From the NCBI GenBank assembly GCA_037479045.1, contig JBBFLL010000008.1:1944-65943 (forward strand): 64,000 bases of DNA, read 5' to 3'. Positions 29,802 to 61,693 of the stretch are shown in pieces. Origin of the DNA: Brevinematales bacterium (GTDB lineage: Bacteria; Spirochaetota; Brevinematia; Brevinematales; JAOACQ01). Both the position numbers and the translations under genes were made by a program. Every line of letters begins with the position of its first letter. Positions within the stretch are counted from its first letter, which is position 1. Under the pieces are notes generated by a model. The model was not told where the DNA came from. It saw nothing but the letters and a program-made list of their open reading frames with translations, and did no database searches.

Positions 29802-31758
29802 CTCATAATCCCTTATTCAGGTCATTCCTTTCTTACAATAAGTAACTATCCGTACAACTACTTTAGCAACATAAGTCGTAATCCCTTATTCAGGTCATTC
29901 CTTTCTTACAATATATATCTTAATGCTGTTTTTTTACAAGAGATAGGTCGTAATCCCTTATTCAGGTCATTCCTTTCTTACTAGAATAAATTATCATCGC
30001 TGTTGTATTCGCTTATATAAAGTCGTAATCCCTTATTCAGGTCATTCCTTTCTTACATTCTGAAAAAAGAGTTATTAATTTAAATAATACTAATAGTCGT
30101 AATCCCTTATTCAGGTCATTCCTTTCTTACAATTAGACCAGAAGACATTTTAATTTTACCAAGAGGGTCGTAATCCCTTATTCAGGTCATTCCTTTCTTA
30201 CAAGGATACTATAAGAATGCTATTACCAGAAAAATATAATTAGTCGTAATCCCTTATTCAGGTCATTCCTTTCTTACAAAAAATAACTAAGGAGAGAACA
30301 TATTGGCGGTTTTTATTGTCGTAATCCCTTATTCAGGTCATTCCTTTCTTACATTATAACAGAAATAATAATTATAACAGAAATAATTACAACGTCGTAA
30401 TCCCTTATTCAGGTCATTCCTTTCTTACAAAAGTTACAAGATGCAAGAAGAGAGCTTTCAGAAAGGCGTCGTAATCCCTTATTCAGGTCATTCCTTTCTT
30501 ACTTTTGTGGACGAATATGGAAAATATTTAAGTAGAAACCAAGTCGTAATCCCTTATTCAGGTCATTCCTTTCTTACTCTTCCTTGACGGTGAAGTATTT
30601 TTATCGAAAGATGTGTCGTAATCCCTTATTCAGGTCATTCCTTTCTTACAAAAACACGCAGGGAGTTTTACTCCCTGCTTTTTTATGTCGTAATCCCTTA
30701 TTCAGGTCATTCCTTTCTTACCGGCGACACCTTCTCATTTACGATGCGAGAGGCGAAAGTCGTAATCCCTTATTCAGGTCATTCCTTTCTTACAAATATT
30801 ATATCAAATATGATTGGTGTTAAATTAGAAATGAGTCGTAATCCCTTATTCAGGTCATTCCTTTCTTACGGGGAGATATTCTTATCAAAATACCCCGTTA
30901 GGGGGTATTGTCGTAATCCCTTATTCAGGTCATTCCTTTCTTACTTCAGCTTCTCGATGAGGGAAGCGAAAGCAGTGACATGCTTGTCGTAATCCCTTAT
31001 TCAGGTCATTCCTTTCTTACGGAAAAGTATGTTGGATCAATTTGACCACAAAAAGAGTTGTGTCGTAATCCCTTATTCAGGTCATTCCTTTCTTACAAAA
31101 AGTGAAATAGTTATTATAAGATATGCTTGTGGACAGTCGTAATCCCTTATTCAGGTCATTCCTTTCTTACAAGAACACAACAGCATAATTATAACAGAAA
31201 TAATAATGTCGTAATCCCTTATTCAGGTCATTCCTTTCTTACTAGATACAAAGTTTCATTTTACTAAAATAAAATTTACTATGTCGTAATCCCTTATTCA
31301 GGTCATTCCTTTCTTACTAAAATTATCAAGGGTGGATATGAAAGTCTTATAAGGGTCGTAATCCCTTATTCAGGTCATTCCTTTCTTACTATCGCGCAGC
31401 AGACACTATATATCGAAGCGCTGAACAGTCGTAATCCCTTATTCAGGTCATTCCTTTCTTACCGACCATAGCGGCTGGCTCTATGTAAAAGAGCCTCACA
31501 AGCAGTCGTAATCCCTTATTCAGGTCATTCCTTTCTTACGGGATGAGCGCAATGGGATATTGCCCGTTGCAAAATTATGTCGTAATCCCTTATTCAGGTC
31601 ATTCCTTTCTTACAAATTTCTTTTGGTAAGAAGTTATGGAGCGAAAAAAGTCGTAATCCCTTATTCAGGTCATTCCTTTCTTACGGAGGAAAATATGGAA
31701 ACAAATTTAAAAGAAATGGCAAAGTCGTAATCCCTTATTCAGGTCATTCCTTTCTTAC
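29802..31758 (-). CRISPR. CRISPR array, 27 repeats of 35 nt and 26 spacers of 36-42 nt
   Basis: Plus-strand repeat is GTCGTAATCCCTTATTCAGGTCATTCCTTTCTTAC. 26 copies are identical. The copy at 29802-29836 has 2 mismatches (CTCAT...), marking the trailer end. The leader and cas2 lie at the 31.76 kb end, so transcription is inferred on the minus strand (repeat GTAAGAAAGGAATGACCTGAATAAGGGATTACGAC). Confidence 0.97.
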
Positions 31759-31973: not shown

Positions 31974-32258
31974 TCATAAAATATTATAACTCTCATTCTC
32001 CAGAATTTCAAGTTTTCCAGGTCCGTATTTAGTTTGTTTTTGCCAGTCTTCTGTACAAACTTCAAAATATACAACAAAGTCTTCTTCTTCATTTATTATT
32101 CTTCCTATTTTATGATACAACTCATTTATGGTGGAAGGCTTTGCAATCATTTCAAAAACAGATTTCTGAACTCTTATTCCATAATTTTCCATAACCTTTG
32201 CTACTTTTTGTAGTCTTTTTTCATCTCTTATATCATAAATTACAAGCCAGTTTTTCAT
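31974..32258 (-). CDS. cas2: CRISPR-associated endoribonuclease Cas2 (copy 2, array-proximal)
   Basis: 94 aa, beta1 with Asp (LVIYDIRDEKRL), YGIRVQKSVFE ferredoxin-fold pattern. Confidence 0.85.
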   Translation of the reverse strand: MKNWLVIYDIRDEKRLQKVAKVMENYGIRVQKSVFEMIAKPSTINELYHKIGRIINEEEDFVVYFEVCTEDWQKQTKYGPGKLEILENESYNIL

Positions 32259-32530
32259 AATATTTCAAATGCCTCCAATCTTATAAGTTCCCCCTTGCCC
32301 TGCTTTATCGCCTTTCTGGTGCAGGATTCACATAGTGGATAGATGAAAAGATAATCCTCCTTTAAATTTAAAATCTCCAGAAGATCTTTCACAATTTTAT
32401 CAAGAATCTTTTTGTCAGTTTCAAGTTGAAAAAATGATTTTTGAACTCTCAAGCCATATCTTTCAAGAGTAGTAGCAACTTTCCTGAGTCTTTTTTCATC
32501 AGAAATATCATAACATATCATATAAATCAT
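32255..32530 (-). CDS. cas2: CRISPR-associated endoribonuclease Cas2 (copy 1)
   Basis: 91 aa, MICYDISDEKRL, YGLRVQKSFFQ. 4-nt overlap with the second cas2. Confidence 0.85.
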   Translation of the reverse strand: MIYMICYDISDEKRLRKVATTLERYGLRVQKSFFQLETDKKILDKIVKDLLEILNLKEDYLFIYPLCESCTRKAIKQGKGELIRLEAFEIL

Positions 32531-33680: not shown

Positions 33681-34982
33681 TTATTTATCATTTAAAACAA
33701 CTTTATAAACTTCATTAAAGGAATTTTCTAATTCTTTTTTTAACTTCTCGATTTTTATTGGTTGGATAAATCCACAGTGATTTATATCATTTCTAATGTT
33801 TCTTAATCTGTTAAAGATATTAAAAAGCTCTTTTATGTCGTTATTTTCCTTCATCTTTTTCAAGATTTCCAAAATATCATTGTCACCTTTATATTCTTTT
33901 TCATTTATGTTTGGATTCATTACAAAATAAATGGCTGCACTTAACTCTTCTCTTATCTTTTTATTGTTAATTTTATCTTTGTATTTAGTTTTTTCAATCA
34001 AATAAGTAATAAGCATTTCTTGTAATATCGTAATTCCCTGTTGTATCAGATTGTGTTCGATACACCATTTTACTGCTCTAAAACCATTTAAAATATCATC
34101 ACTGTTGAATTCTGTAATTTTTTCTTCTATTTTTTCAAGTAAAGGTATTAAAGCATAACTTAAGTTGAGGTCGGCTCTTTTAATTTCATTTAATAACTTC
34201 TTCGCCTTATTAAAATTTTCTCCCTTTATAATTTGTAGTCCTCTACAGTATAGAATTTCATTTGTTCCAATATCTATCCAGTCTATAAGATGTTTAATTT
34301 TTTTGTAATTATCATCAATTTTTCCACAAAAAGTTTTTTGAAGGGGTATGATGTGTTGATTTACAATTTCTTTTATTTTTCTTGTTGAACCAGAACTTAC
34401 AAATTCTCTTGCTCCTATGCCCCACTCCATTATATCATAATATGGAGTTAAATCAAAAATAGGTGCATTTCTGTCTTTTATATCCCTTTGTCTTACTAAT
34501 GAAATGGGTCCAAGTGTTTCAAATGCTCCATAATATATTCCTTTTATTTTTATATTTTTTAGGAAACGGGCGTAATTTAATAAAGTGATACCAAGCAGTG
34601 GGAGAAGCCTGAAACCATGGGTAATATCAAAAAATACTTCATCACCATCTTTGAATAGGTTAAATACTTTGCTAAAAATTTGCCAAATTTCGTTTTCATT
34701 TGAACCTACTGGAATATCTTTTACAGGTTCAACAATATCATTTTTCTTCAATTCGGATATTTTTTCTTCTAACTTTGGCCAATTCCTATCTTCTGCTTCT
34801 TTAGTGAGAAGAATATAAATTTTGTCGTTGTTGTCTTTTTTAAATTCTTTACAAAAGATTTTTAGCATTGCTTCCTGAACGAATTTAACATTTTCCACTT
34901 TTTGATTTCCAAAATAATAGTTACATTCAACGTAATCATTTGTACCAAGAAAACTTAAAAATACTTTCCTATTATTATTCAT
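33681..34982 (-). CDS. csx1: Csx1-family CARF-HEPN protein (DxTHG motif type)
   Basis: N-terminal Rossmann-like strand VFLSFLGT, DxTHG motif FFDITHGFR, C-terminal HEPN R-x4-H (RNIRNDINH). 433 aa. Confidence 0.8.
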   Translation of the reverse strand: MNNNRKVFLSFLGTNDYVECNYYFGNQKVENVKFVQEAMLKIFCKEFKKDNNDKIYILLTKEAEDRNWPKLEEKISELKKNDIVEPVKDIPVGSNENEIWQIFSKVFNLFKDGDEVFFDITHGFRLLPLLGITLLNYARFLKNIKIKGIYYGAFETLGPISLVRQRDIKDRNAPIFDLTPYYDIMEWGIGAREFVSSGSTRKIKEIVNQHIIPLQKTFCGKIDDNYKKIKHLIDWIDIGTNEILYCRGLQIIKGENFNKAKKLLNEIKRADLNLSYALIPLLEKIEEKITEFNSDDILNGFRAVKWCIEHNLIQQGITILQEMLITYLIEKTKYKDKINNKKIREELSAAIYFVMNPNINEKEYKGDNDILEILKKMKENNDIKELFNIFNRLRNIRNDINHCGFIQPIKIEKLKKELENSFNEVYKVVLNDK

Positions 34983-35589
34983 AAAGAAATTTTACCTCCT
35001 CTTTAAACAAATTTTTTGGATTATCCAATATATATTTCCTTATTTCTTTCAATTCCTCTCCATTTCTTATGATGTGATCATAAAACCGGGATTGCCACTG
35101 GAAATAACATAAATTCGATCTTCTGATTTCATATGTACAACGTCCTTTAAACCACCTCACAATTTTTGATAATGAATTTTTTGTTAACATCGGATTGTGA
35201 ATTCCTGTAATTCCGCCATTTTTATATCCATTTTCGGTATTTTCGATGGTAGGAACGCGATTAATCGCGTTCCTACCATCGAAAATATCATCGACACCGT
35301 TCACAACGACATTATCATTTTCTAAAATAATAATTATACCATGAATATGGTCTGGCATTATAACATAATAATCCAATTTGACATTTTCAAAATGAGATGG
35401 AATTTCGTTCCAGGTTACATCGACAATTTTTCCTATTTCTGACAAAATTACCTCACCATTAATTACCTTTGACAGAATATTCATCCTTTCTTTTACACAT
35501 ATCGTTACAAAATATGCCCCCGGCGAAGAATAATCCCATCCTTTAAGCCTTATAGATTCATTACGATATTTATTCATAAACAATGACAC
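34975..35589 (-). CDS. IS200-like Y1 HUH transposase family protein (RAYT-like)
   Basis: SIRLKGWDYSSPGAYFVTIC N-terminus, HUH motif MPDHIHGIIII, catalytic Tyr helix WQSRFYDHIIRN. GTG start with RBS GGGAG over the upstream stop. 8-nt overlap with the csx1 ATG. Confidence 0.8.
   Translation of the reverse strand: MSLFMNKYRNESIRLKGWDYSSPGAYFVTICVKERMNILSKVINGEVILSEIGKIVDVTWNEIPSHFENVKLDYYVIMPDHIHGIIIILENDNVVVNGVDDIFDGRNAINRVPTIENTENGYKNGGITGIHNPMLTKNSLSKIVRWFKGRCTYEIRRSNLCYFQWQSRFYDHIIRNGEELKEIRKYILDNPKNLFKEEVKFLYE
35238..35287. repeat. 50-nt perfect palindrome inside the HUH gene
   Basis: TATTTTCGATGGTAGGAACGCGATT|AATCGCGTTCCTACCATCGAAAATA. All 25 positions pair, checked base by base. Confidence 0.9.
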
Positions 35590-42596: not shown

Positions 42597-42648
42597 AATT
42601 TTCTGGTGGTAGCCACGTGATTAATCACGTGGCTACCACCAGAAAATT
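42597..42648. repeat. 52-nt perfect palindrome in the cmr1-cas10 intergenic spacer
   Basis: AATTTTCTGGTGGTAGCCACGTGATT|AATCACGTGGCTACCACCAGAAAATT. Same architecture as the palindrome at 35238-35287. Confidence 0.9.
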
Positions 42649-42653
42649 TATAA

Positions 42654-43648
42654 TTAGGGGCAAAGATAATTTATAAAATCTGCTGTTTTGTCATTACTTA
42701 AATTAATATCCGTCACATTCGGGTCGAAAGCAACATTTAGTTGAGTTATTATTGGAAAATATACCCCATTATACTTATAGCATGAAATATAAAGTGTCAT
42801 AACACTGTCTCGAAGAGTTGTAGCATACTTTCATTATCCTTATAGCATGAAATATAAAGTGGGGAAGCAAATCTTTTGGTTACTTGTTGTGGATTATTTT
42901 GCACACTTCTTCTACCGGCATATCCTGTGTAGTCACAGTTATAGTTGTGGGAAGCAGTACCTATTTCTTTTAATAGAGTATTATAATCATCAAATTTCTT
43001 TCCAACTTTAATAAATTTTACATAAGGAAAATTTAAAGTTAAATTATTATTAGTTAATTCAATTTGATCATTATTAACTTTAAATTTTTGTGGATTTATT
43101 TTGTCTAAATAATCAAAAACATTTGATATAATACCATTATTGATCCCAAAATTTTCATTATTTTTTTTGTTTATTACAAAAGAACCAAAGCCTCTTCTTG
43201 CTCTTCTACCAAGTCCTCCAACAATCGAGAAAAGTATAAATAGGTTTTCAAAAATATCTTTTGTGTTTTCATAACATGTCAATGAGATTTTGAAAATATT
43301 ATTGTCGGGTAAAAAACAGGGTAAGCTAAAATTTGGTTTTTCTTTGTGTGGAAGAGGTTTGTAATTATTATTTTTATTAAATTGTGGATTTTGTAAAATC
43401 TGTATTTTTAACTTGCTCTTTTTATCTGTTGAACCGAAAAGGTCTAATTCTGCTTCTTTAAGTTTTCCAATATCGCTATAATTTATTCCATACAAAGCCC
43501 TCCACCAGAATCTGAGTGCTCCCTTTATAGAAGCTGGTCTTAACTCACATTCACTTTGATTTGCTCCAGATAGGAACATAGGTGTTATGATTTCGCATTC
43601 AAACTCAAGCTTTTCCACGTTCTTGTATCTCTCAACATAAAATTCCAT
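42654..43648 (-). pseudogene. cmr1: type III-B RAMP protein Cmr1, interrupted by a 65-nt insertion (frameshift)
   Basis: ASIKGALRFWWRA motif. The listed ORF stops at 42797 inside the insert. The expected C-terminus (LYISCYKYNGVYFPIITQLNVAFDPNV...LCP*) continues in another frame down to 42654. Confidence 0.7.
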
Positions 43649-60337: not shown

Positions 60338-60380
60338 TAAAAAAATAAAGCTGTTTGTGGAAAAACCCACAAACAGCTTT
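60338..60380 (-). terminator. intra-operon hairpin terminator/attenuator after the binding-protein gene
   Basis: 14-bp stem AAAGCTGTTTGTGG / CCACAAACAGCTTT with a 6-nt loop, followed on the minus strand by ATTTTTTT. Confidence 0.55.
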
Positions 60381-60403: not shown

Positions 60404-61693
60404 TTATTCCATTTTGCTTTCAAGTTCTTTCTGAGCATCAGCTAAAGCTGTGTCAACATCTTTCTTTCCTTCAAGAACTTCAGAAAGAGCCTGTGAAAGA
60501 ATTGAGTTAGCTATAGAATCCTTCTCGTTTACATAAACTTCTGGAATTTCCATAGCAATCTGTCTCCAGAGAAGTCTTGCTTTCTGTCCACCAATGTAAT
60601 CAATTCCTTCTTCAAAAACCTTATCTTTCCATGCTGGAATATAAGCTGGGAACGCATCTGCTTTGTCATATGCAATAAGCTGTGCATTAACATCTGTGCA
60701 GAGGTATTTAATAACTTCCCAACCAGCAGCCTTGTTAACATCTGGAATCTTCTTTGGAATAGCAAGGAATGATCCACCCTGGCTCATCTTCATAGGACTC
60801 TTATCTCTCTTTGAAAGTTTAGGAAGTTCTGCTACTCTATATTTTCCTTTTGCATCTGGAGCAATCCAGTTCTTTAAGTGTCCACCAAGCCATGCACCTG
60901 ATGGTGTGTATGAGATTGTTCCTTCTTTTAAAGCAGCATACCATTCATTTGACCAGTCTCCAATCTTTGCATCATATCCTGCATCTCTGAACTTCTTTGC
61001 CCAGCTAACTGCAAGTTTGATTCTTGGAGCTGTTAAAGCTGGTTTTCCATTCTTGTCAAAGAATCTTTGTGGTGATGAGAAGAAGATCATATTGAAGATA
61101 TAGTTTGCACCACCAAGTAACCAGTGGTCAACTTTTCCATCGCCATCAGCGTCGAAGGTAAGGGTTTTACCAGCTTTGAAGAGATCTTCAATATCAACGA
61201 TTTTGTTGATATCAACTTTTCTCTTATCAAAGACGTCTTTTCTATACCATACGCAACCAGGAGCGATATCAACTGGCATAGCAAAGAGATTCTTTGGTCC
61301 TAAAGAAGCCTGTGCCCATTTGTAAGGAGTAAAATCTTTTTTGAATTGACCAGCATTGTAAGGTTCATCCATAAGATTTTCAAAACCACCACCAGCACCG
61401 AGCTGAGCAACATAACCGATTTCAACAACTGCGATATCTGGTAAACCTTTACCAGCAGCGAGTGCTGTAACAAGCATGTTGTGGTGATCACCATAACCGA
61501 GAGCCCTTACTTCAACTTTGATGTTAGGATACTTCTTGTAAAACTCTGGAAGAGCTGCATTATAAGCAGCATCAAGACTTGGGAAAACGGCAAGAATCAA
61601 GTTAACCTTTTCGCCGTTATAAGGTTTAACGGCAGAGAAACCAAAGCTCATAGCAAGAGCAATGGTAACTAACACTAACACTACTCTCTTCAT
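60404..61693 (-). CDS. extracellular solute-binding protein (carbohydrate, family 1)
   Basis: Signal peptide, 429 aa, first gene of the SBP-permease-permease unit. Confidence 0.9.
   Translation of the reverse strand: MKRVVLVLVTIALAMSFGFSAVKPYNGEKVNLILAVFPSLDAAYNAALPEFYKKYPNIKVEVRALGYGDHHNMLVTALAAGKGLPDIAVVEIGYVAQLGAGGGFENLMDEPYNAGQFKKDFTPYKWAQASLGPKNLFAMPVDIAPGCVWYRKDVFDKRKVDINKIVDIEDLFKAGKTLTFDADGDGKVDHWLLGGANYIFNMIFFSSPQRFFDKNGKPALTAPRIKLAVSWAKKFRDAGYDAKIGDWSNEWYAALKEGTISYTPSGAWLGGHLKNWIAPDAKGKYRVAELPKLSKRDKSPMKMSQGGSFLAIPKKIPDVNKAAGWEVIKYLCTDVNAQLIAYDKADAFPAYIPAWKDKVFEEGIDYIGGQKARLLWRQIAMEIPEVYVNEKDSIANSILSQALSEVLEGKKDVDTALADAQKELESKME

Follow-up and report, generated by a model that had tools for sequence, protein, structure and literature searches.

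A perfect palindrome within an HUH gene

The window analyzed here is a 64,000-nt stretch of contig JBBFLL010000008.1 from a metagenome-assembled genome (MAG) of the Brevinematia (Spirochaetota), and all coordinates are positions in this window. The element under study is a perfect palindrome at 35238-35287, located in frame inside a minus-strand open reading frame (ORF 34975-35589, 204 aa) for an HUH protein, which is packed inside a type III-B CRISPR-Cas operon. The GTG start of the gene lies 3 nt past the csx20 stop, and its end overlaps the start of the downstream CARF-family gene by 8 nt. The arms of the palindrome are 25+25 nt long and 100% complementary, with 0 nt between them (TATTTTCGATGGTAGGAACGCGATT followed directly by AATCGCGTTCCTACCATCGAAAATA). 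The encoded peptide, DIFDGRNAINRVPTIENT, makes up residues 101-118 and is placed after the HUH motif H81-I-H83 and before the tyrosine motif Y186-ILD-NP. An earlier sequence-only reading had described a flawless 25+25 palindrome between these two motifs and had translated its core as GRNAINRVPT, and it was correct on each of these points. Its description of the core as GC-rich is only mildly true: the GC content was 0.50 in the 28-nt core, compared with 0.40 in the 50-mer and 0.31 in the HUH gene.

The same reading held that the stem was beyond chance, which was borne out. The longest perfect arms in the shuffled window were 9-12 nt (five mononucleotide shuffles of the whole window) vs. 25 nt observed. 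As single-stranded DNA (ssDNA), the 50-mer folded into a hairpin of -26.8 kcal/mol (z = -12), and 0 of 200 shuffles folded as well; the 28-nt core reached -13.3 kcal/mol. The RNA minimum-energy fold of the 150-nt context retained a 23-bp stem. The 50-mer was unchanged in four other assemblies or contigs and is therefore not an assembly artefact. As the symmetry is perfect and in register, an identical 16-residue peptide (IFDGRNAINRVPTIEN) is encoded by each strand of 35239-35286, and tblastn gives a 100% identical match on the opposite strand.

On its sequence, the protein is a TnpA_REP/RAYT (REP-associated tyrosine transposase; REP, repetitive extragenic palindrome) Y1 HUH enzyme, subclass 2.4-like (RAYT group 4). 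TnpA_Y1 subclass 2.4 was defined by Quentin, Siguier, Chandler & Fichant (2018, BMC Genomics 19:475) and corresponds to RAYT group 4 of Bertels; its members carry NH[IFV]H, WQ, and YIxNNP, have a median length of 194 aa, and occur in Cyanobacteria, Bacteroidetes, and various other phyla (PMC6006769). Compared by motifs and length, the window protein has DHIH, WQ, and YILDNP in 204 aa, whereas [ND]H[IVL]H and YIxNNP are the forms seen in its close homologs. The score for Pfam Y1_Tnp just passed the cut-off (25.8 bits, cut-off 23).

With a profile of the protein and 40 homologs, the sole PDB sequence match was E. coli TnpA_REP (4ER8; identity ~16%), and the block WQ-x4-[E/D]H-x2-R...Y-x3-NP was aligned. 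The HUH motif, W165-Q166, and Y186-ILD-N190-P191 all align with 4ER8 and fall into invariant columns of the homolog alignment. In the E. coli enzyme, W94, Q95, E100, H101, and R104 contact the GTAG foot of the REP (PMC6006769). An AlphaFold (AF2) model was built on this alignment of homologs, and its best Foldseek match was 4er8_A (E = 7e-7), followed by ISDra2 and IS608 TnpA. The core of the model had a predicted local distance difference test score (pLDDT) above 90, while residues 90-135 were low throughout (block means 36-66; below 50 for residues 95-114) and contained two short predicted strands only (116-118 and 121-123). The palindrome-encoded peptide thus falls in a low-pLDDT, unstructured segment of the model. 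This segment is a peripheral and probably disordered linker that runs from the HUH strand (81-88) to helix 140-157, the helix before the W-Q/Tyr region.

Table 1. Coordinates of the palindromes, the host gene, and its motifs (a slash between sequence blocks marks the center of symmetry; strand "." means that no strand applies)
Feature	Position	Strand	Details or basis
tnpA_REP/RAYT gene, 204 aa, Y1 HUH, subclass 2.4-like	34975..35589	-	GTG start
Perfect 25+25 palindrome	35238..35287	.	Encodes residues 101-118 of the HUH protein
28-bp "double-foot" REP core	35249..35276	.	GTAG-GAACGCGATT / AATCGCGTTC-CTAC; homologous to the family consensus GTAGAGACGCGATTAATCGCGTCTCTAC
Variable low-confidence linker, residues 90-135, palindrome host	35185..35322	-	Predicted structure and alignment variability
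HUH motif H81-I82-H83 (within MPDHIHG)	35341..35349	-	Homolog alignment, alignment to 4ER8
W165-Q166...D171-H172...R175 block	35065..35097	-	Aligns with W94, Q95, E100, H101, R104 of E. coli TnpA_REP (4ER8)
Catalytic Tyr motif Y186-I-L-D-N-P, class 2 signature Y---NP	35017..35034	-	Homolog alignment, alignment to 4ER8
Second, extragenic REP-family member, perfect 26+26 palindrome	42597..42648	.	AATTTTCTGGTG-GTAG-CCACGTGATT / AATCACGTGG-CTAC-CACCAGAAAATT
Double-foot core of the second copy	42609..42636	.	GTAGCCACGTGATTAATCACGTGGCTAC

The hairpin in homologous genes

A protein search gave 4349 relatives, and 80 genomic loci were fetched from Cyanobacteria, Bacteroidota, Patescibacteria, Ignavibacteriota, Marinimicrobia, Chloroflexota, and others; 81 genes were compared, with codon-shuffled genes as controls. 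Perfect hairpin arms of at least 9 nt were present in 61/81 homolog genes vs. 22/810 codon shuffles, so that the homolog comparison proposed in the sequence-only reading came out strongly positive. With perfect arms of at least 12 nt, the counts were 41/81 and 0/810, and with at least 11 of 12 pairs (one mismatch in 12 allowed), 56/81 and 5/243. Nearly all of the hairpins (59 of 61) were found just after the HUH motif, or in genes where the scan missed that motif.

The commonest form of the hairpin was 14+14, GTAG(A/G)GAC-NNNNNN joined to NNNNNN-GTC(Y)CTAC. Among the 27 perfect 14+14 stems, positions 1-4 were invariant (GTAG/CTAC) and positions 5-8 nearly invariant, and positions 9-14 had three to four different Watson-Crick pair types each. 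The inner stems seen included GCGATT/AATCGC, GTTGCA/TGCAAC, AGGGCA/TGCCCT, GCAAAA/TTTTGC, and CTTCCA/TGGAAG. Pairing continued through the center (0-nt loop) in 39/59 hairpins; by our own estimate, a self-complementary center in place of a 4-nt loop is expected by chance in about one in sixteen.

The hairpin DNA was read in different frames in different genes. The foot was translated as GTA-GAG (V-E...) in 19 genes and as xGT-AGx (x-R-D...) in 16, and the frame with the TAG stop was never used. The inner stem ACGCGATT was read in one frame in the window and two other loci (L001, L008) and in the other frame in L010, L016, L018, and L025; ACGTTGCA and ACGCGCCG were also read in both frames, in different genomes. 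The two peptide "motifs" of the family, RRDAINRVST and VETRLIASLQ, exist because REP DNA is read in two frames. The nearest distinct homolog (P0002, 59% identity) carries TGTAGAGACGCGATTAATCGCGTCTCTACA, and when its palindrome (TGTAGAGACGCG...) was compared with that of the window (GGTAGGAACGCG...), three mirrored substitution pairs were seen, altering G/C, N/D, and P/S. Since both stop-free frames are in use, conservation applies to the element as DNA and does not extend to the encoded peptide.

These observations refute the explanation that an RDAINRVST-like peptide is what is conserved and that the symmetry of the DNA merely follows from the codons used, to which we assign practically no probability. 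The closest homologs do keep C/R-R-D-A-I-N-R-V-S-T, but other homologs read the same DNA in the second frame as VETRLIASLQ, inner stems change wholesale with mirrored substitutions that alter amino acids, identical DNA is found outside genes, and the region is predicted to be disordered. The outcome that the sequence-only reading had set against its own proposal, the same peptide without DNA symmetry, was absent; symmetry is kept while peptide and frame change.

At least 17 homologs were free of the hairpin. Several of them retain the REP-encoded peptide (GDAINRVCT in L005, VETRLIASLQ in L017, SDAINRVTT in L059) and are therefore decayed copies. In an "empty site" comparison, linker length did not differ significantly between hairpin-bearing and hairpin-free genes within the subset that could be anchored, which included few of the distant homologs. 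Mismatches in imperfect copies were four G.T, three A.C, and four others, with no G.T excess, in a sample of little power (n = 11). Core protein identity (residues 90-135 removed) dropped with inner-stem distance, from 0.57 for identical stems to 0.47 for distant stems (rho -0.21, 0/2000 permutations), a correlation that fits putative co-evolution of enzyme and substrate.

Two or more REP arms or partial tandem copies were present within the linker in several homologs, among them L010, L018, L029, and L075 and the proteins P0050, P0113, and P0120 (e.g., CRDAINLCRDGINLCRDAINRVST and EEDAMNQIREEGVMNQIQEEDAMNRVST), a pattern that points to slippage or local amplification inside the gene. A search of viral contigs for relatives gave none.

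Copies outside the gene and the CRISPR-Cas operon

The second palindrome of the window (-28.7 kcal/mol), which the sequence-only reading had missed, is located 7.3 kb from the first. It occupies part of the spacer that separates a RAMP gene from cas10, with 28 nt between its end and the ATG of cas10. Both copies have a GTAG foot with a 10-nt stem, mirrored by a 10-nt stem and CTAC (35249-35276 and 42609-42636), and the arms of the intragenic palindrome run 11 nt past the GTAG/CTAC foot. The copies match at 41/50 positions, with about 6 differences per arm, each mirrored in the other arm; as both share the arm extension, they are descended from one palindrome of ~50 bp. Neither palindrome is covered by an Rfam family. 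In the sister assemblies described below, the second palindrome begins 6 nt past the RAMP stop, and the distance from its end to the cas10 ATG is likewise 28 nt, an intercistronic position typical of REPs. No second HUH gene or pseudogene was found near it, and no second HUH copy in the window.

Two other identities were considered for these palindromes and rejected. As an intrinsic terminator for the operon, the operon strand scores nothing, and only the + (antisense) strand of the second palindrome gives a score, with a weak T tail. The CRISPR repeat (GTCGTAATCCC...CTTAC) is unrelated to the palindrome. At the 3' end of the minus-strand RAMP gene (42797-43648), a 65-nt insertion relative to the sister assemblies was observed at ~42774-42861; it is bounded by a 23-nt direct repeat (CACTTTATATTTCATGCTATAAG, coding strand), swaps the last ~38 residues for 14 others, and has moved the stop about 150 nt from the palindrome.

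The same gene order (Cas6-RAMP-Cmr2-Cmr3-RAMP-Cmr5-RAMP-Csx20-HUH-CARF effector-Cas1-Cas2-Cas2) was found in three other assemblies (L211-L213), in which both palindromes are identical. Their HUH gene is the same up to nt 582 and then diverges abruptly, and the downstream CARF effector is Card1 (369 aa) in these assemblies vs. a 433-aa TM1812/DxTHG protein in the window (33681-34982). The effector cassette has therefore been exchanged, with the breakpoint in the last ~11 RAYT codons (34975-35007). A 4.7%-diverged strain variant with window-type neighbors has the 50-mer unchanged, and the CRISPR setting as a whole is stable over at least five assemblies or contigs. CRISPR association as a trait of the family was rejected: the nearest homologs (P0003, P0004, P0010, and P0002) are in unrelated contexts. 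Homologs of any window cas gene were absent from 86 other loci. Residence in a CRISPR-Cas operon seems to be a peculiarity of this lineage.

Elsewhere in the window (29806-31750 and 31974-32530), a CRISPR array with the repeat GTCGTAATCCCTTATTCAGGTCATTCCTTTCTTAC precedes two overlapping cas2 genes arranged in tandem (94 and 91 aa), after which comes cas1. A hairpin with a 14-bp stem at 60347-60380 (AAAGCTGTTTGTGG-AAAAAC-CCACAAACAGCTTT), which has no relation to the REP, lies shortly past the end of the minus-strand ORF 60404-61693 and is probably a terminator.

In about 20 homolog loci, the same hairpin immediately flanks the gene, often in arrays, and another 20 or so loci, the window included, have an intragenic hairpin without a nearby extragenic copy; no further copy was found within 7 kb of the window RAYT gene. 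For metagenome contigs, the pattern GTAG-NN-ACG-N-GATTAATC-N-CGT-NN-CTAC was used, and at least 120 stretches matched. The 28-bp consensus occurred at least 130 times in at least 120 metagenome loci and is a dispersed repeat in metagenomes. In the first 80 of the at least 120 loci, 80 of 89 copies had no HUH gene in the fetched stretch, six were inside one, and two were within 500 nt of one. Copies were depleted in long open frames (49% of 130 listed occurrences vs. 79% of random positions). The exact 28-mer GTAGAGACGCGATTAATCGCGTCTCTAC was spread over contigs with a GC content of 0.26-0.56 (L087-L206), mostly far from HUH genes in the screened loci. About 15% of the metagenome 28-mer copies were extended to perfect arms of 18-34 nt; past the foot, these arms mirror each other perfectly although their sequence differs from locus to locus. 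The symmetry of the arms, including the center and the locus-specific extensions, appears to be actively maintained. Finding that the palindrome is a common genome-wide repeat unrelated to its gene had been named as evidence against the sequence-only proposal; this does not apply, because the dispersed repeat family is tied to the RAYT gene family.

The sequence-only reading had also pointed to a very stable stem in the polycistronic RNA. This is plausible, as the minimum-energy fold of the RNA retains the stem, but it is unsupported as the primary constraint. An mRNA stem-loop (a stabilizer, processing site, or attenuator) that merely resembles a REP would gain from the high stability of the stem as RNA and from the precedent of REPs that act as RNA elements in operons of other bacteria, as stated in abstracts (Di Nocera 2013, PMC3733652). 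We consider it very improbable. An RNA stem has no need of the self-complementary center found in 39/59 hairpins; the stems are pure Watson-Crick, with no G.U excess; the element occurs in both orientations and in the flanks, whatever the direction of the gene; there is no Rfam match and no U-tract on the operon strand; and the GTAG/CTAC foot is the DNA-recognition signature of TnpA_REP (PMC6006769, PMC8266576).

Origin, persistence, and meaning of the intragenic REP

With a probability of about 80%, the palindrome is a "double-foot" GTAG REP placed in frame in a variable, poorly ordered linker of its own RAYT gene. Its sequence agrees with that of the REPs found beside the gene in other genomes, the window has a second copy at a distance of 7.3 kb, and the predicted structure shows the host loop to be peripheral. 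Hairpins with a GTAG foot are the kind of ssDNA that TnpA_REP/RAYT enzymes bind and cut (PMC6006769, PMC8266576), and REPs with a 5' GT[AG]G and a 3' C[TC]AC are termed "double foot" (PMC6006769). Intragenic REPs within the gene of their own enzyme were described in 2018 for subclass 2.4, where they are the rule, and the insert was modeled as peripheral, with little impact (PMC6006769). In the literature searched, no work on intragenic copies after 2018 was found. Of the two proposals of the sequence-only reading, one has the recognition hairpin carried by the gene itself, and the other has a REP-like element inserted into a permissive surface loop; both fit the GTAG...CTAC core, the symmetry in homologs, the low-pLDDT segment, and the 2018 precedent of subclass 2.4.

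Like subclass 2.4, the window system has a Y1 HUH enzyme of about 194-204 aa with W-Q and Y---NP and an intragenic double-foot REP. It differs in having no REPs within 1 kb of the gene, in its type III-B operon and Brevinematia (Spirochaetota) MAG, in arms that extend 11 nt past the foot, and in DHIH (consensus NH[IFV]H) and YILDNP. The REPtron of E. coli (TnpA_REP/REP; 4ER8) is the best match in both sequence and structure and shares the GTAG-contacting block and the 5' GTAG foot; its REPs are, however, extragenic, imperfect (bulged), single-footed, and gene-flanking, and one strand (REP, not inverted REP, iREP) is the substrate. Part of the work on this REPtron is reportedly due to Messing (2012) and Ton-Hoang (2012). 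TnpA of the IS200/IS605 family (IS608, ISDra2) has the HUH/Y1 fold and ssDNA-hairpin logic in common with the window protein. It differs in its Y---Q motif, and the elements that encode it occur in many copies, have subterminal hairpins at their ends, and often include a tnpB partner. An IS200/IS605 insertion sequence was rejected for the RAYT locus on account of Y---NP, the lack of room for element ends, and the absence of an adjacent tnpB and of a second HUH copy; no tnpB-like ORF was found beside the RAYT gene. GTAG REPs and in-frame REPs in unrelated genes were described by Di Nocera et al. in 2013 (PMC3733652). The intragenic GTAG/CGTC REPs and the Rickettsia palindromic elements (PMC3733652) are similar as tolerated in-frame palindromic repeats that add a short peptide; they are scattered over diverse host genes, whereas in the family studied here the host is the gene of the enzyme itself, at one recurrent site across phyla.

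The intragenic copy may have arisen by the REP-disseminating activity of the enzyme close to its own gene, and it would persist because almost every sequence is tolerated in the linker loop as long as it stays out of the TAG frame. With a symmetry that is perfect and includes the center, both strands fold into the same GTAG-footed hairpin, loop included, and either strand could be a substrate when single-stranded. The biochemistry of Corneloup (2021), for groups 2 and 3, showed that the folded ssDNA REP is bound via GTAG and the hairpin, that cleavage takes place at CT/CA beside the hairpin, that the reverse complement is no substrate, and that loop bases matter in some systems (PMC8266576). 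The self-complementary center would matter if, as in groups 2/3, only the GTAG-bearing strand is a substrate and the loop bases are read. Perfect symmetry and the locus-specific outward growth of the arms may be kept by a process at the DNA level, not by codon-level selection, with hairpin-templated correction, template switching, and re-copying as candidates. As a side effect, gene and substrate would be inherited together.

Several points weigh against this interpretation. The available assays cover groups 2 and 3 only, and the term "cognate substrate" rests on analogy and co-variation; the co-variation of protein and stem can also be explained by shared descent. Unlike most subclass 2.4 genes, the window RAYT has no flanking REPs within 1 kb, and the 64-kb window has only two diverged copies, one of them extragenic, so that any REP activity in this genome is putative. 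The motifs of the protein differ slightly from those of subclass 2.4 (DHIH vs. NH[IFV]H; YILDNP vs. YIxNNP). The match to NCBIfam REP_Tyr_transpos (NF047646) scored 58.3 bits, below the cut-off of 80, and was split in two by the insert; the model was built on other subclasses. In the 4.7%-diverged variant, 0/29 substitutions fell in the palindrome, which is not significant (P about 0.09). Template switching and hairpin-templated correction are known from quasipalindrome mutagenesis, and they are applied here as general background.

The intragenic REP may also play some regulatory part, either within the mRNA or with respect to the enzyme. The stronger form of this idea, in which the REP has a selected cis function, is in our view unlikely. 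The enzyme could bind or cut the hairpin in its own gene or mRNA (an autoregulatory site); a strong barrier to translation or RNA decay could keep RAYT low and determine how much csx20, RAYT, and the CARF effector are expressed relative to one another; or a "seed" copy could ensure that the enzyme always travels with its substrate. Such a function would agree with the presence of the hairpin in about 70% of homologs from many phyla, with the 23-bp stem in the RNA fold, with the roughly 20 loci, the window among them, that have an intragenic and no nearby extragenic copy, and with the location of both window copies in one operon, the second between the RAMP stop and the cas10 start. Slow neutral decay is hard to reconcile with the perfect state of many palindromes, but mutational processes can preserve perfect symmetry without selection. 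The hairpin-free homologs, at least 17 and several with decayed remnants, mean that the hairpin is dispensable; no pattern of G.U tolerance points to RNA; and Quentin et al. modeled the insert as peripheral and of little impact (PMC6006769).

The double-foot REP in the linker of its RAYT gene, as preferred above, is a clear instance of an arrangement published in 2018 and not a new kind of thing. New relative to the literature are the second, 26+26 palindrome before cas10, a RAYT in a type III-B operon, beside a cassette-swap breakpoint, and the apparent active maintenance of arm symmetry. The quantified frame independence, the self-complementary centers, and the mirrored growth of the arms also go beyond the literature; all of these additions are descriptive or inferred. 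A bolder and rather doubtful proposal is that the RAYT-REP pair is an actively maintained, functional, minimal self-contained unit carrying its own substrate or seed, with identical hairpins on both strands, and that this unit and the cas10-proximal REP have been recruited into the type III-B operon in the Brevinematia lineage, tuning the expression of its cistrons or promoting the exchange of CARF-effector cassettes.

Reading the raw sequence alone thus sufficed to reveal a feature that is both genuine and uncommon: a gene whose reading frame contains the putative DNA substrate of the enzyme it encodes. In the published view, the insert is a neutral passenger. The comparative data sharpen the question of its function, through the frame-independent DNA, the compensated change of inner stems, the roughly 20 genomes with flanking copies, the self-complementary centers, and the mirrored arm growth. 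The window offers a compact test case, with a 204-aa protein, a hairpin of 28-50 nt, and two copies in one operon, and the CRISPR-Cas setting may repay a look because it is stable in at least five assemblies or contigs.

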